Shown here one piece after another: positions 2,066 to 64,000 of a stretch of 64,000 nucleotides of DNA; the stretch's first letter is position 1, and every line of letters begins with the position of its first letter. The notes beneath the pieces were generated by a model that did no database searches, had not been told where the DNA came from, and saw nothing but the letters and a program-made list of their open reading frames with translations. Source of the DNA: Naegleria gruberi (lineage: Eukaryota); the NCBI GenBank assembly GCA_000004985.1, contig GG738893.1; one strand, written 5' to 3'. The position numbers were made by a program, and so were the translations under genes.

Positions 2066-2857
2066 GTTTTAATGTTATTGTATTTTTTTTTAATTTAAAA
2101 ATTTCAATTTTAAAAAACGGATCGCCTTTATGGACGACTATTTCAAAAAGTTTCAGAAATTGTAAGTGTTCATAATTGTTTTTATTATTTCCAATAACTT
2201 CAACTTGTTCGAAACATCCCAAACCTTCATGTATTTTCATTACCCAAAAGACAATCTTCAAAAGGAAAGTTGACCCACTAATCAAACCCACAAAAATATC
2301 AATTGAATACCATTCTAAGTGTTCCACATCTTCAAATTTCAATCCTCTCTAGAAGAAACTAAACTATTCAATAATGATTGGTGTGTGAATGGCTCAAATA
2401 ATACAACCAATACCAAGTATCTCATCTGTGATATCAGAAAAAGCCTTCAGTATCACCAACTCACTCCCAACTCTCTGTGAACGAATGTTTGAAAATCAAA
2501 AACTTCCTCTGTCAATTTTATTGTTGTTTGCCACTTTCCAAATCTTCCAACCTCAACAACACACAAAAAAAAGCCTTCAACCGCGCTCGCTGCGACACCC
2601 AACAAATCTCGTCAATCTTTTTTTTGCCGCCACTTTCCAGCAGCGTTTTCAACGTCGATATTCTCTCTTCTTTGAAAAAACAACTTTGCGTCGTCATTGT
2701 CGAGGACTTGATATAAACTCATCAAAGTCATCATACATTAGAATACACTAATAATATACACATCATCTCGTTTTTGTTATCTTCTTCTTCATTAACGAAA
2801 AATATAAAGGGTGAGTGATTTGAAAGATTGTGTTTTATTTAAAATATCAAAAAGAAA

Positions 2858-4169
2858 ATGGCCGAAATTAATTTACAAGAAGCTATTTCAAATGCCAGAT
2901 TAGAGGCACAACAATTGAAGGAAAAAATCAACGCACAGAGAAAAGTTATTAATGATGTGAACAGTAAGTGTTTTTATTGTGTGAGGTTTTTATAATTTAC
3001 TCTTGACATTTGACAAACATCATCAACATGTTGGAAATTTATGATGATATTTTATTATTAAAACTAAATAGTGAAGGATTTGGATGTTGCTGAAATTTCA
3101 CCTCTCAAATTAAAGGAACGAAGAGTGTTTAAAGGACACTCATCTAAAGTTGCTAGTTTAGCTTGGTCAAAGGACTCGAAGACAATTTTGACTGCCGGCC
3201 AAGATAGAATGTTAATTGTAAGTTTAGGAAGTGGTAATAATGATTTGATGACACTTTTTAGTTATGGGATGCTGTGACAACATATAAATTGAGTGCTATT
3301 CCTCTACAAGCTCGTGGTATTATGTGTTGCGATTATAGTACGAGTGGAAATTATGTTTGTGTTGGTGGTTTGGATAACATTTGTTCAGTTTGTAAGTAAT
3401 TATTATCAATAATTATGATGTTAATAAGTTTCGAATAGTTTCCCTTTCTGCTGTTACTCAACAATTACAAAACTCATCCAATGAATACAAGCCATTCAGG
3501 CAACTAGTAGGACATACAGGCTATTTGAGCTCTTGCAAATTTATTAGTGATCGTCACATATTAACTAGTTCTGGAGATCAAAGTTGTATTTTCTGGGATG
3601 TTGAAATGACTCACGCGGTGTCACATTTCCAAGTAAGTATTATTCAATATTAGAAATGTTAACTATTTAATTAGGAACATACTGGTGATTGTATGGCTGT
3701 TTCTGTTTCTCCTATTGAACAAAATGTATTTGTTAGTGGAAGTTGTGATGGTAGTTCAAAGTTGTGGGATGTACGTATGAATAAGTGTGTTGCCACATTC
3801 ACTGGTCATGAAGGTGATATCAATTCAGTTCAATTTTTCCCTAATGGAAATGCCTTTGCCACTGGTTCTGATGATTGTACTTGTAGATTGTTCGACCTTC
3901 GTGCTTCACGTGAGGTTATGACCTATTCAGATGATAATGTCAGAGAAGGTGTCACTAGTATTAGTTTCAGCAAATCTGGACGTGTTTTATTTGCTGCCTA
4001 TGAAGATAAGAAAGTTATTGCTTGGGATTCATTGAAAGGAACCATTTTACAAACTTTGGATGGCCTTCCAAATGGTCACGATAATCGTGTCAGTTGTTTG
4101 GCAGTTTCTCCTGATGGACACGCTCTTGCCACAGGTTCATGGGACATGACCATGAAGATATTTGCTTAA
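2858..4169 (+). CDS. Heterotrimeric G-protein beta subunit (WD40), 5 exons
   Basis: Model: join(2858..2963, 3072..3217, 3262..3391, 3439..3632, 3675..4169), totalling 1071 nt (357 codons). All four introns are GTAAGT...(T/A)AG and 42-108 nt long. The N-terminal coiled coil is [26 protein letters not shown] repeats follow with the Gbeta hallmarks [47 protein letters not shown] and [21 protein letters not shown]. Confidence 0.85.
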
Positions 4170-14503: not shown

Positions 14504-15925
14504 ATGCAACCCATTCGCAAATCAAAAGTAGGCTCAGCCTATTCTATTGGAGACATGTCTAATTGGAAAGTTGTAACTGCTAATTCGCCTTCAATTATCA
14601 AGGAATCACCCCCAATGGAAGTTGATAAATCAATACTAGTACCTACAACAACAACAATATCGGAACAACATGATCAAAAACAACAACAGGATATTGTCTA
14701 TGACTCGAGTGATAGCTCGGATGAAGGAGTGATGGATAGTGCCGATAGTAGTACAGAGGAAAGATTTCCAAGGCCTACACGATCTCAAACAAAATCAAGA
14801 AAAAGAACAACCATGGATAAGAATACAAAACAAAATGTAAATTATAAACCACCTGCAACTGTAGTGGATGATCCAACTGCAGAGGTTAGAAAAAACAAAT
14901 TGGCCTTAATGAGATTTTCTGATATTTTCCAAAGAGAAGAGGAAGACACAAAGGATGATAAAGCCATTACAGTAGATAATGGAGATATTATTTTGGGATC
15001 TGAGGATAGTAGTGATGATGAACGTTTTACAGCTGCTCTTCAGGCTGGAATTAATCGTTCCAATCCCAATAAGAAGCAAAAACTTACAGTTGAAAAAAGT
15101 CAACAACCTTCATCATCTTCTGAAGTGAGCACTCCTAAAAATTCAGCTTCCTCTTCAACTAATTCAAGCACTTTGAAAAAGAAGGCAGCAAAACAGGACT
15201 GTGTACTGGTACCTAATTCTGCTCTCTTCAGATTTGTTTGTTCTTGCTCAACTGTAAAGGAGATTAGATACGAATTACAAGAGGATTTTGAGGATGAAAA
15301 ACATGTATCCTCCAGAAAAAAGCACAATATGAAATCATCATCAAGGAAAGGAAGATTGAGCACAGAGGAGGTTAATTTTATAAGGAAATATTACAACATG
15401 TCAAAGGATATTCGTATTGCAAAATATCATATCCCTTTAAACAAGTTCAAAAATGTGGAATCATTGGATGATGGAATTATTAGAACGTGGGAGGATTCTA
15501 ACGAAGATGAAGTCAATTTATCAAATATCAAACACTTTGTCTCTATAATTTTAGGAAGGAGTTTTGATCTCATTTCTTCACAATGGAAAAAATTTGAAAA
15601 GAAGGATGATATTTGGCACAGAAATTTTGTGATCTATCTTGAACAAATGAGATATCACTTTGAAGAAGCTCCACAAACTCCAACCCGCCATGCTGATCAT
15701 GACGAAGAAATTATTGAGATTTTCCAAAGTATTCTTTTACAAATGAAGAAATATATTGATCAAGTGAACGCTAAGAGAAGTGGAAAAGACTTTGATAAGG
15801 ATGAAATGAAAAAGATGGAAGACTTGCTGAGTGAGCATTATTACAGATTGGACGAGTACCTCCAATTTTACAATGAAGAGCTTCACGATGCATTATGGCG
15901 ATGCTCTTTAAATTTAATGAAATAG
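14504..15925 (+). CDS. Hypothetical acidic Ser/Asp-rich protein (473 aa)
   Basis: ORF from the track with the ATG at 14504. It has acidic low-complexity stretches and a C-terminal conserved-looking helical region (HYYRLDEYLQFYNEELHDALW). Confidence 0.5.
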   Translation: MQPIRKSKVGSAYSIGDMSNWKVVTANSPSIIKESPPMEVDKSILVPTTTTISEQHDQKQQQDIVYDSSDSSDEGVMDSADSSTEERFPRPTRSQTKSRKRTTMDKNTKQNVNYKPPATVVDDPTAEVRKNKLALMRFSDIFQREEEDTKDDKAITVDNGDIILGSEDSSDDERFTAALQAGINRSNPNKKQKLTVEKSQQPSSSSEVSTPKNSASSSTNSSTLKKKAAKQDCVLVPNSALFRFVCSCSTVKEIRYELQEDFEDEKHVSSRKKHNMKSSSRKGRLSTEEVNFIRKYYNMSKDIRIAKYHIPLNKFKNVESLDDGIIRTWEDSNEDEVNLSNIKHFVSIILGRSFDLISSQWKKFEKKDDIWHRNFVIYLEQMRYHFEEAPQTPTRHADHDEEIIEIFQSILLQMKKYIDQVNAKRSGKDFDKDEMKKMEDLLSEHYYRLDEYLQFYNEELHDALWRCSLNLMK

Positions 15926-41094: not shown

Positions 41095-41175
41095 TTGCAG
41101 AAGGTGGGATTTGAACCCACGAAGCTTGCGCAGTAGAACTTGAGTCTACCCCCTTTGACCACTCGGGAACCCCTG
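41095..41175 (-). tRNA. tRNA-Leu (anticodon CAA), type II with a long variable arm
   Basis: The reverse complement reads GCAGGGGTTCCCGAGTGGTCAAAGGGGGTAGACTCAAGTTCTACTGCGCAAGCTTCGTGGGTTCAAATCCCACCTTCTGCA. The acceptor stem is GCAGGGG/CCTTCTGC with 2 G-U pairs. The anticodon stem is GTAGA/TCTAC, with loop CTCAAGT. The T arm is GTGGG-TTCAAAT-CCCAC. There is no encoded CCA. Confidence 0.85.
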
Positions 41176-41380
41176 CTTACATTAACACTTTTAAAATCAA
41201 TTTTATGTTGTTAAATCTCGCTGCAACAAAGGCAATTACTTTTAGGTTCGTGTTTGGTGAACGTACCAATGATCTCATTGTTATAAATGGCTAATTTCCT
41301 TCATCTAATTGATAAGTTCATTACAATTTATGCGATTTGTGACATTAGATTAGATCTGTCTTTACTCAACACTTAAAAAA

Positions 41381-61152: not shown

Positions 61153-62025
61153 TTATTCTGCAATATTCTTTTTCAACCAAGTAATAATATTTGTCAAGCA
61201 AGTATCCAAATTCATGGCAGAACTATCGTGTTCATCTTTGATAGTTTCGAACATTGTCTTTTCTTCAAGAGTTAAAGACATTTCTTCGAAACTCTTGTAA
61301 GAAAACTTTTGGATGTGTTTCTTATCTACTTTTGCTTCGAACAAATTTTGAATTGTATAGACCTTTGGAAGTGGGTCTAATTTTTCTTCATTTTCAATAA
61401 TTACATTACAATCATAAAAGTGTCTGATATATCTGTCTAGAGGAATATCAGTAACTTTTCTTCGTTTGACAATTGCATCCATTTTCTCTAATAATGTTTC
61501 CAATGGATGAACACAATCAATTTCAATCTTTGGACACTTATTTAATTGGTGGATTACTGATCTGACATCTCGTGTAACTACACAATTATGTTCATCTAAA
61601 CCAATGTCAATATAAATCTCACCACCTTCCAAATTTCTAACTTGGGATTCAAATTTTACCAGAAATACACAAGTTTCACATTCAGTGTCTAATTCGTTTT
61701 TAATTTTCTCAACGACAACAAAAGGAATTAGTCTCTTTGTGTGTTCAAACACGGCGGCAAAGTACTTTTCTCTTTCTTTCTTGTTTTGTGGCATGTGATA
61801 CTTTAACTCTAAATCCATGAAATTGTTCTTTTTTGGAATTAGTTTTAGATCCATATCCTTGGATTGTCTGTTGGATATGTGAAATACCTTAGAGAGAGTA
61901 GAGCCACCTTTGTAGATTACATCAAACTTTCGAGATAGCCAGTAGAGAATGTGGCTTCTCCAGTAATCAAGTTCTAAATCATACAATTGTTTTGACATAT
62001 CAACAAAATCACTACTTGCTGACAT
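61153..62025 (-). CDS. Nucleotidyltransferase of the AbiEii/DUF1814 type (290 aa)
   Basis: Minus ORF from the track, beginning with an ATG. The N-terminal region ...YWLSRKFDVIYKGGSTLSKVFHISNRQSKDMDLKL fits the family signature KGGTAL.L.Y...R.S.D(I/L)DF of AbiEii-type minimal nucleotidyltransferases. Its composition matches the surrounding genes. Confidence 0.45.
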   Translation of the reverse strand: MSASSDFVDMSKQLYDLELDYWRSHILYWLSRKFDVIYKGGSTLSKVFHISNRQSKDMDLKLIPKKNNFMDLELKYHMPQNKKEREKYFAAVFEHTKRLIPFVVVEKIKNELDTECETCVFLVKFESQVRNLEGGEIYIDIGLDEHNCVVTRDVRSVIHQLNKCPKIEIDCVHPLETLLEKMDAIVKRRKVTDIPLDRYIRHFYDCNVIIENEEKLDPLPKVYTIQNLFEAKVDKKHIQKFSYKSFEEMSLTLEEKTMFETIKDEHDSSAMNLDTCLTNIITWLKKNIAE

Positions 62026-62993
62026 TTTTTTTGTTGATGATTAGTTTTTATTCGAAATGACTTGGTGATGTGGACATTCTATGGGAAGAGACACAAATTA
62101 CTGTTACAAGTGGGGAGGAGGGGTAAAAATCTTACTTTTAATTTAGGGGTGTTGGCTAGGAAATTACGAAATAATTGGGGGGTAAAAACATTATTTATTT
62201 AATTATTTCTTAACTAATTCTTCAAATTGTGATTTCTTTGGTACTCCACGTTTCTAATTCTATAGTGGTTCTTCTTCTTGTTCCAATTCCTTCTCTTGTT
62301 AAACCTATGGAATTATAGTTGCTGGGAAAGTCTTCTTAACTTTTTCTTTGGTTATTTTTGTCCGTATGTGGTGAAGTATAAACCATTGTATTGTGCTGGT
62401 TGTTGTTGATTAATCTTCCTTTCTATTTACAAAAGTGTCTTCTAAGGTAATGAATCATCAGTTTGTACCAATGGTTATCCTTAATTAATTTCTTGATGGT
62501 AATTGCTGTAGGAATTCATGAAGTGAAGGTAAGGCGTGTTATTGTTGTTGTGGAAACATTTGGAAGTGCGTGCTTTGTTTTGGTAGAGGGTTAGTTGTAT
62601 TGAGGTTTTTTTAAAATATTTTTTTACTTTTATTAAGCTAGCTTTTACAATAAAGAAAAATCAAGCAAGCTGAAAGCGAAGCTTGGTTTTTCTTAAAATT
62701 TTAATAAAATTACATTACACACGAGTGGGGTGGAGAAAATATTATTTTACATACGAGTGGGGTCAAAACGAAGGACCGTAATTAATGTCTCTTCCCTATT
62801 GCATCAAACTGGCTTTTAGAACGTTAGTACTTTTCAATAGCTCAAACATTACAATAAATTGTTAAATTTTACTATCCTTTCCTTTCTGGTATTATATATC
62901 GAAATTATGAGAACTGTGATCAATAACATAAATTAATAAATGAAGAGGAATTAACCGTTTGGCGCCTTTTTTAAAAATTCAAATTACGAAAAA

Positions 62994-64000
62994 ATGAAAC
63001 AAAGACCAACACCTCAAATTCACGATTTATTGAATTCACCTCCACTAACAATAAAACCCCTCAGAAAAAGCAATAAATCCCTTGATGAAGATGAGAGGTT
63101 GTATCATAGTTATTCCGATAGAAAATTAAGACAAAGCATCGGAAAGACAATGGTTGAACTCAGCAGCCAGAGCAGGGATGTTTCTTCAAGTACCCAAAAA
63201 AGACCATCATCTGCAATGAGTGCAAGCATTGTATCACTTCAAGGACCTACACTTGCATCAACAGGACAATTCATAATGACTGATTCTGTTCAGTCAACTA
63301 AGGGTTATAAATCCCAAGAGGAAGCCAAAATGGAAGATGAATATATCAAGAACTTACAAAAACAAATAGGTTTACTTTCTACAGAGCTTCAGTTGCAAAG
63401 AAAGATGAATGATGAAACTGAGAAAAAGCTTCATGAAAAAACTGAACCAATTGAGGATCCAATTCTTACTATTAAGAAAAAGTTTGCTGAGAAGGATGAA
63501 AATTATAATCAATTCATTGAAAAATTCAAACAAGAAATTGCTGATAGAGAATCAAAGGTTTGTTTAATAGAAATTGCTTCTTAACACTTTGAAGATTGTG
63601 AAATTGAAAGAAAAATACAAAAAGTGGAAAGATAAGAATTTGAAAGAACGAGAACATTCCAAGTTGGAAATTCGTACCCTACATGAGAAGTACGTACCAG
63701 AGGTCATTAAATTGGAAAAGCAAATTGATATGGTTAATTTGAGAGTTAAACAAGAAACAAAAGAGAATGAAAGAAAGAATGATGACATTAAAAGTTTCTT
63801 GAAAGAAATTGGAGAAATTTCAAAGAAGGTTGAATTTATTCAAATGCAAAAAGACCAAGCAGAAAAACAACTTCAACCATTAATGGATGAACTGAATATA
63901 GTAAAGAAGGAATTACTAAGTTATAATTCTAATAGAGATAAAGATAAAAACGAGATTGAATCTTTGAAGGGAAGACTGTCAAAATATGAAAAGGAATGGG
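62994..64000 (+). CDS. Coiled-coil protein, 2 or more exons, 3'-truncated by the window end
   Basis: Model: join(62994..63557, 63595..>64000). The donor is AAG|GTTTGT and a 37-nt intron ends at TTTGAAG. The frame is open to the window end (..ADRESK|IVKLKEKYKKWKDKNLKEREHSKLEIRTL...). The ATG at 62994 follows an A-rich leader. Confidence 0.55.

Follow-up and report, generated by a model that had tools for sequence, protein, structure and literature searches.

An orphan AbiEii/MenT-type nucleotidyltransferase gene, probably acquired by horizontal transfer, in the nuclear genome of Naegleria gruberi

A stretch of 64,000 nucleotides from Naegleria gruberi (assembly GCA_000004985.1, contig GG738893.1), referred to as the window and analysed over its full length, carries at 61153..62025 on its minus strand an open reading frame (ORF) that is probably an orphan, horizontally acquired member of the AbiEii family of nucleotidyltransferases (NTases) in the nuclear genome of this amoeba. 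The frame opens with ATG, and with 6.3% of all trinucleotides in the window being stops, a run of 290 stop-free codons is unlikely to have arisen by chance (P ~7e-9). Over its whole length, its product agrees at 100% with a known entry called "predicted protein [Naegleria gruberi]", which sits on a 337-kb contig and already carries a PF08843 tag; this identity marks the window as N. gruberi nuclear DNA.

Profile searches placed the protein in the AbiEii/DUF1814 family. Pfam model PF08843 matched residues 39-266 with E=7.9e-19 and 69 bits, against a gathering cutoff of 22.5, and 12 AbiEii models of PADLOC matched as well, the best of them with E=1.8e-23. As the ORF is collinear with the family profiles (positions 18-223 of 238 in Pfam, 32-275 of 309 in PADLOC), no intron is required, in line with the first-pass annotation, which had described the frame as intron-free. 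A hidden Markov model (HMM) made from 78 bacterial homologues had this ORF as its sole match in the window (E=4.5e-31), and a second AbiEii copy in the window, considered as a candidate, was rejected. A search of NCBIfam gave no meaningful match, a single-sequence phmmer search of the Protein Data Bank (PDB) returned nothing relevant, and a profile search of the PDB yielded only weak N-terminal matches, to MenT4, AbiGII and JHP933.

An AlphaFold model built on 64 homologues reached a predicted local distance difference test score (pLDDT) of 90.8 and a predicted template modelling score (pTM) of 0.90, and with this model the top 10 Foldseek matches in the PDB were all MenT4 or MenT3/TglT, each with probability 1.0, at a sequence identity to these proteins of 10-15%. 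Other NTases were more remote (ANT(2'') at 9.6, LnuA at 8.6, and terminal uridylyltransferases, OAS and cGAS below 8). By sequence and by predicted fold, the protein is a DUF1814 family member. The first-pass annotation had named two outcomes that would speak against its reading; instead, the AbiEii/DUF1814 models matched well above threshold, and the best structural matches are bacterial MenT/TglT toxins and no eukaryotic fold family. As an observation on the side, baculovirus Ac18 and Ac18-like proteins and uncharacterised entomopoxvirus proteins also matched the predicted model (Foldseek probability 0.99-1.0, TM-score ~0.35, 9-11% identity), which hints that these viral proteins may share an NTase-like fold.

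The motifs of the family can be followed along the protein. According to the definition of Dy et al. 2014, members show hG[G/S]-x15-DhD together with an extra arginine, a motif III in which a conserved lysine in hydrophobic surroundings is followed by an arginine (KLxAaxxR-like), and a pentad as motif IV; mutation of any of the four AbiEii motifs abolished toxicity, and the tested mutants of motifs I, II and IV also lost GTP binding (PMC3985639). The stretch YKGGSTLSKVFHISNRQSKDMDL, which the first-pass annotation had recognised as an AbiEii signature, indeed contains motifs I and II: K39-G40-G41 is followed after exactly 15 residues by D57-M58-D59, Asp57 and Asp59 being putatively metal-binding, and the family-specific Arg53 is present upstream of the Asp pair. 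Two residues ahead of the first catalytic Asp57, Ser55 occupies the putative phospho-acceptor position, at which at least 90% of the bacterial homologues have Ser as well. The phospho-acceptor T65 of AbiEii goes with D67/D69 in the same way (PMC3985639; bioRxiv 10.64898/2026.01.19.700257), and PDB entries of TglT/MenT3 carry the mutations S78A and D82A, S78 matching Ser55 by equal spacing. The Naegleria protein has thus retained the very Ser whose auto-phosphorylation is induced by bacterial antitoxins to shut the enzyme down.

As its third acidic residue, the active site has Asp140 in Naegleria and Glu in at least 90% of the bacterial relatives, a conservative change; judging by titles of PDB entries, not by alignment, it may be equivalent to TglT E146. 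Motif III reads K181-M-D-A-I-V-K-R188, with K181 invariant in the alignment of 64 sequences and conserved in at least 90% of the bacterial homologues. Compared to the published +DxxD of motif IV, the pentad RHFYD retains the basic residue and the last Asp and has His in place of the first Asp, a replacement common to the whole bacterial subfamily, which sits in toxin-antitoxin operons. Altogether, of 31 columns conserved to at least 90% in bacteria, 23 are unchanged in the protein, including G40, G41, R53, S55, D57, D59, K181, R201 and D205, at a mean identity of only 22%, the pattern to be expected of an enzyme still under constraint. In the alignment, the N-terminus does not extend beyond that of the bacterial proteins, so there is no hint of organelle targeting.

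In its composition, the gene is inconspicuous among its neighbours. Its index resembling the codon adaptation index (CAI) is 0.714, compared to 0.64-0.79 for 11 large ORFs of the window, the GC content at third codon positions (GC3) is 0.296 (29.6%) with a range of 0.20-0.33 for the large ORFs, and the overall GC content of 32.0% is close to the window mean of 32.7%. The matched 600-base stretches of the bacterial homologue loci, in comparison, have a median GC content of 51%. Both the host-like, AT-rich codon usage and the position in a eukaryotic gene array noted in the first-pass annotation are hence confirmed, the array comprising genes for an F-box/LRR protein and, among the large ORFs, PI3K, CDC48/p97, EFL1, PPR, WDR11-like and RGS proteins. 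Bacterial contamination or a chimeric assembly, which comes to mind because the family is otherwise almost wholly prokaryotic, can practically be dismissed: apart from the host-like base composition, the ORF lies on a 337-kb scaffold in a window of eukaryotic genes that go on to either side of it, and its identity to bacterial proteins stays at 29% or below.

Relatives of the protein are rare outside bacteria. Among 1.84 billion cluster representatives, all of them scanned with HMMER, 109 proteins reached E<=1e-3, and no more than 15 of these reached E<=1e-10. The top two, P0002 and P0003, are AT-rich environmental sequences from the Joint Genome Institute (JGI; samples 3300030740, 3300030741 and 3300030743), where they lie on short contigs (1-2 kb, GC content 33-37%); their identity to the Naegleria protein is 38% for P0002 (35% in the alignment) and 34% for P0003 (31% in the alignment). 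The first bases of L001, the contig of P0003, are a poly(T) stretch complementary to the poly(A) tail of the neighbouring gene, and both contigs are probably eukaryotic transcripts. No homologue was found for the gene next to P0003. Between the two genes of this contig, at ~640-1010, we also noticed an inverted repeat of ~60 nt ("...CTATGCGGCTTCTGAGAGATTTGAGTTTACAATTTTTTGCGGTTTCAGGC..." and its complement), for which both an artefact of the assembly and a mobile element are conceivable.

The remaining relatives all look bacterial. In the Genome Taxonomy Database (GTDB), 183 relatives from many phyla were confirmed by tblastn, and the 80 loci kept from these include Bdellovibrionota, Holophagales, Myxococcota, Planctomycetota, Bacteroidota, Proteobacteria and Actinomycetes; in near-full-length matches, their identity to the Naegleria protein does not exceed 29%. 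Word-indexed protein searches returned only the Naegleria protein itself, P0003 and four bacterial proteins, two metagenome scans gave no relative closer than 30% identity, a scan of IMG/VR gave no relative, and BFVD offered only remote matches to the NTase fold (TM-score ~0.35, identity at most 14%). A patchy eukaryotic distribution, consisting of Naegleria and the two environmental sequences, thus faces a broad prokaryotic one of 183 GTDB genomes. An unrooted neighbour-joining (NJ) tree was computed from 309 alignment columns of 135 sequences, none of them fungal, and 198 of 200 bootstraps joined the Naegleria protein, P0002 and P0003 in one long-branched clade. No particular group of bacteria emerged as sister to the trio, the narrowest split that surrounds it taking in 52 further sequences.

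Full amelioration and an identity of at most 29% to bacterial proteins lead us to infer that a eukaryotic lineage gained the gene by an old horizontal transfer, and the two environmental, probably eukaryotic, transcripts would share the ancestry of the transferred gene. An old, ameliorated transfer fits because eukaryote-like relatives are few, codon usage is host-like and the scaffold is eukaryotic. Of the old and domesticated transfer that the first-pass annotation gave as one of two options, the transfer part is supported; domestication, in the sense of a functional gene, is suggested only by an ORF that is intact and by catalytic residues that are conserved.

In bacteria, the locus of the relatives is a classic AbiEi-AbiEii operon. 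Upstream of the toxin gene, 60 of 78 homologue loci have an ORF of 170-290 aa on the same strand, whose end lies only a few bases from the start of the toxin gene and often overlaps it by 4-10 bp, and eight of the nine such ORFs scanned matched AbiEi_4, DUF6088 or AbiEi_3_N, several of them under the Pfam cutoff. The first-pass annotation had advised a search for such a partner near the Naegleria gene. An antitoxin HMM made from the 60 upstream ORFs was run with filters off against all six-frame segments of the 64-kb window and revealed neither an AbiEi-like ORF nor a remnant of one, its best match having E=1.5, while the toxin HMM, serving as control, gave the E=4.5e-31 mentioned above. An AbiEi pseudogene in the spacer upstream of the gene was considered too and rejected, the antitoxin HMM being without a match there. 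Because the window holds no AbiEi partner, the Naegleria gene is a solo toxin-family gene and not an AbiE/MenAT system.

Characterised members of the family are template-independent NTases. MenT toxins and AbiEii add nucleotides to the 3' ends of tRNAs (PMC7450476, PMC10435456, PMC11541572; bioRxiv 10.64898/2026.01.19.700257); AbiEii of Streptococcus agalactiae adds UMP or CMP and is silenced by AbiEi, which induces auto-phosphorylation of its T65 (bioRxiv 10.64898/2026.01.19.700257; PMC11375011). Judging from its residues, we lean towards the view that the Naegleria enzyme is still an active NTase. By analogy to MenT1, MenT3, MenT4 and S. agalactiae AbiEii, it would transfer one or a few nucleoside monophosphates (NMPs) to RNA 3' ends in a Mg-dependent manner, the best-supported mechanism because active site and phospho-acceptor are intact. 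The likeliest target would be the CCA end of tRNA, whose extension would block aminoacylation and translation; tRNA 3' ends as the target are a tentative proposal, somewhat less likely than not. A role in defence or stress, with the protein as a stress or antiviral effector, is conceivable but rather unlikely. In the absence of an antitoxin, the activity would have to be curbed by other means: by tight or induced expression, by a host kinase and phosphatase acting on Ser55, or by a change to a non-lethal substrate.

The last of these options leads to another explanation, in which the NTase fold was kept and tRNA has been given up as substrate in favour of a different RNA, of a protein, or of a small molecule or antibiotic, as for ANT(2'') and LnuA. 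Such a repurposed enzyme would explain the absent antitoxin, and it has precedents in ANT(2''), LnuA and Pb27 within the superfamily and in the fungal DUF1814 proteins, which are likewise without antitoxins (PMC3985639). The closest relatives in sequence are, however, toxins of toxin-antitoxin operons, and the phospho-acceptor Ser55 of toxin regulation is retained; we regard repurposing as doubtful, though worth keeping in mind.

Several points weigh against a gene that was transferred once and is still at work. The databases searched yielded no orthologue from a second named eukaryote, not even from another Naegleria species, and conservation by selection is for this reason not measurable. 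In P0003, Arg replaces the second catalytic Asp (SKDIRI), and P0002 is frameshifted in a run of ten A (L004 ~681-690), giving a full-length homologue of 315 aa once repaired; together, these defects could mean that the Naegleria clade is under relaxed constraint. The trio in the NJ tree joins very divergent sequences with long branches and a shared AT bias, and neither the donor nor a single transfer is established by it. The predicted isoelectric point (pI) of the Naegleria protein, 6.1, is counted here as well. Finally, if the enzyme still attacked tRNA, it should harm its host for want of an antitoxin, and this speaks for an activity that has changed or been lost.

These points bear on the possibility that the gene is a neutral relic, that is, a horizontally acquired passenger, either not yet disrupted or catalytically dead, and functionless in Naegleria. 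While its restriction to a single named species in the databases, the lack of a partner gene and the degenerate look of P0003 (DxR for DxD) and of the frameshifted P0002 would suit such a relic, the 290 codons have stayed intact despite the frequency of stop trinucleotides, full codon amelioration implies long residence, and neutral drift would not predict the survival of 23 of the 31 most conserved positions, with every catalytic one among them, at ~22% identity. A relic therefore appears improbable to us, and an old transfer of an AbiEii-family NTase that has kept its catalytic residues is preferred. The boldest extension of this preferred reading would be that a small protist lineage, comprising Naegleria and soil eukaryotes, domesticated an abortive-infection toxin as an antitoxin-free effector, which would halt translation by tRNA 3'-end extension during viral infection or stress and would be under eukaryotic control via phosphorylation of Ser55 or via proteolysis, conceivably by the adjacent F-box/LRR protein; we offer it as speculative and consider it quite unlikely.

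Table 1. Coordinates of the AbiEii-like gene, its motifs, its surroundings in the window and its two environmental relatives
Feature	Position	Strand	Remarks
AbiEii/MenT-type (DUF1814, PF08843) nucleotidyltransferase coding sequence	61153..62025	-	single exon, 290 aa, stop codon included
Motifs I and II, residues 38-60, YKGGSTLSKVFHISNRQSKDMDL	61846..61914	-	pattern hGG-x15-DhD, read directly
Asp140, third acidic active-site residue (putative)	61606..61608	-	from alignment columns
Motif III, residues 173-188, HPLETLLEKMDAIVKR	61462..61509	-	Lys181 and Arg188, KLxAaxxR-type
Motif IV equivalent, residues 201-205, RHFYD	61411..61425	-	bacterial subfamily consensus RHY[EY]D
Protein with F-box and LRR_6 repeats, 473 aa	59399..60820	-	downstream same-strand neighbour, Pfam
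Head-to-head intergenic region	62026..62993		968 bp, between AbiEii-like gene (-) and coiled-coil ORF at 62994 (+)
Candidate MITE-like insertion, 714 bp	62083..62796		bounded by imperfect 22-nt inverted repeat
Divergent ORF, 196 aa	62994..63584	+	weak coiled-coil-type Pfam matches, all below cutoffs; not AbiEi-like
P0003	L001 1086-1973		environmental contig
P0002	L004 36-984		environmental contig

The spacer upstream of the gene had been singled out in the first-pass annotation as the longest of the window, rich in G-runs and richer in GC than other spacers. Length and G-runs agree with our analysis: it is the longest gap without an ATG-initiated ORF of at least 60 aa, with 968 bp compared to 941, 820 and 738 bp for the next ones, and it contains five GGGG and one GGGGGG. 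The GC content does not, since 31.1% is below the 32.7% of the window and inside the range of 25.1-33.5% for the ten other ORF-free gaps compared. G exceeds C (18.9% vs 12.2%), a skew found alike in other gaps, e.g., 2752..3692. As the flanking genes point away from each other, the spacer is a head-to-head region and presumably a shared promoter. It has no ORF longer than 46 aa, and no tRNA and no Rfam match (E<=1) were found in or near it.

Within the spacer, two inverted-repeat arms (62083-62104 and 62775-62796) match at 19 of 22 positions, with TAT outside each arm; a match of this quality was reached in 0 of 200 shuffles of the spacer. The pair may delimit an insertion similar to a miniature inverted-repeat transposable element (MITE), a candidate with a single visible copy: no second copy of the enclosed segment exists in the window, and when the spacer was compared by blastn to the remainder of the window, the matches did not rise above chance level. 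Such an insertion would explain the length of the spacer, because ~250 bp remain without the 714-bp segment. Near the right arm lies, in addition, a 26-nt direct repeat (62706-62731 and 62738-62763, 85%).

With a candidate insertion bounded by inverted repeats directly upstream of the gene, and with amoebae known to take up giant-virus DNA, acquisition via a giant virus or another eukaryotic mobile element, instead of straight from a bacterium, deserves mention. The inverted repeats do not enclose the gene, however, the flanking genes are ordinary cellular genes, and neither the IMG/VR scan nor the remote folds of BFVD described above provided a viral relative, so that this route seems very unlikely.

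Among the neighbours, the F-box/LRR gene lies 332 bp downstream of the AbiEii-like gene. Its product could be functionally tied to the NTase, e.g., by targeted degradation, though this is pure speculation. The window has a second ORF of 473 aa at 14504..15925, and the two were considered as paralogues and rejected, similarity between them being ruled out. On the other side, the divergent ORF is overlapped at its end (63584) by another open frame on the plus strand, ~63571..63999, which runs to the end of the window, and the gene starting at 62994 may continue via an intron or a change of frame. The only tRNA in the window is a tRNA-Leu(CAA) at 41096..41176 on the minus strand.

We found no literature on AbiEii/DUF1814 in Naegleria or other protists; a seeming match in a paper on a hornwort genome proved to be the species name Picea abies. 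As DUF1814 orphans are already known in fungi and the protein had already been tagged PF08843, the gene is a solid, further and so far unstudied case, and no major surprise. If active, it would encode a eukaryotic, nuclear MenT/AbiEii tRNA-modifying enzyme working without an antitoxin, of which we found no published example; it would show how a eukaryote can tame a bacterial toxin and would be a further example of a bacterial defence gene put to new use in a eukaryote. Should the protein even serve as a domesticated effector, NTases of the AbiE/MenT type would join the bacterial immune modules in eukaryotic immunity. If inactive, the gene would be one more orphan relic of horizontal transfer. 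With its single exon, the gene lends itself well to expression and tRNA-tailing assays, and it is a marker of horizontal transfer into Heterolobosea.

Among known systems, the toxins MenT3/TglT (Rv1045) and MenT4 (Rv2826c) of Mycobacterium tuberculosis have the same layout as the Naegleria protein, with GG...R-x-S-x-D-x-D, a third acidic residue and the Lys of motif III, and S78 of TglT and Ser55 represent the same phospho-acceptor position. Both toxins have MenA antitoxins as their operon partners, whereas the Naegleria gene stands alone in a eukaryotic host. With AbiEii of S. agalactiae and Lactococcus lactis (PF08843, COG2253), it shares the hGG-x15-DhD spacing and the extra Arg that sets DUF1814 apart from other Pol-beta NTases (PMC3985639). 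In motif IV, it differs from AbiEii (RHFYD instead of +DxxD), as does the bacterial subfamily. The AbiE system is a phage defence that includes an AbiEi gene; the Naegleria gene has no such gene in the window and is thus not part of a toxin-antitoxin or abortive-infection system.

The fungal DUF1814 proteins, such as Pb27 of Paracoccidioides (PDB 5uvd), are eukaryotic and antitoxin-less as well (PMC3985639; PMC11375011). Pb27 is shorter, however (218 aa), and structurally further from the Naegleria protein than the bacterial MenT toxins are, and the Naegleria gene may go back to an acquisition independent of that in fungi. A similar pattern, a bacterial toxin domain without its prokaryotic partner, is displayed in Naegleria itself by a solo HEPN domain of the Ava_2192 type (PMC3710099); that report does not mention DUF1814 or COG2253 and has AbiE only in its reference list. 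The two proteins differ in fold and chemistry, the HEPN domain being an RNase and the AbiEii-like protein an NTase.

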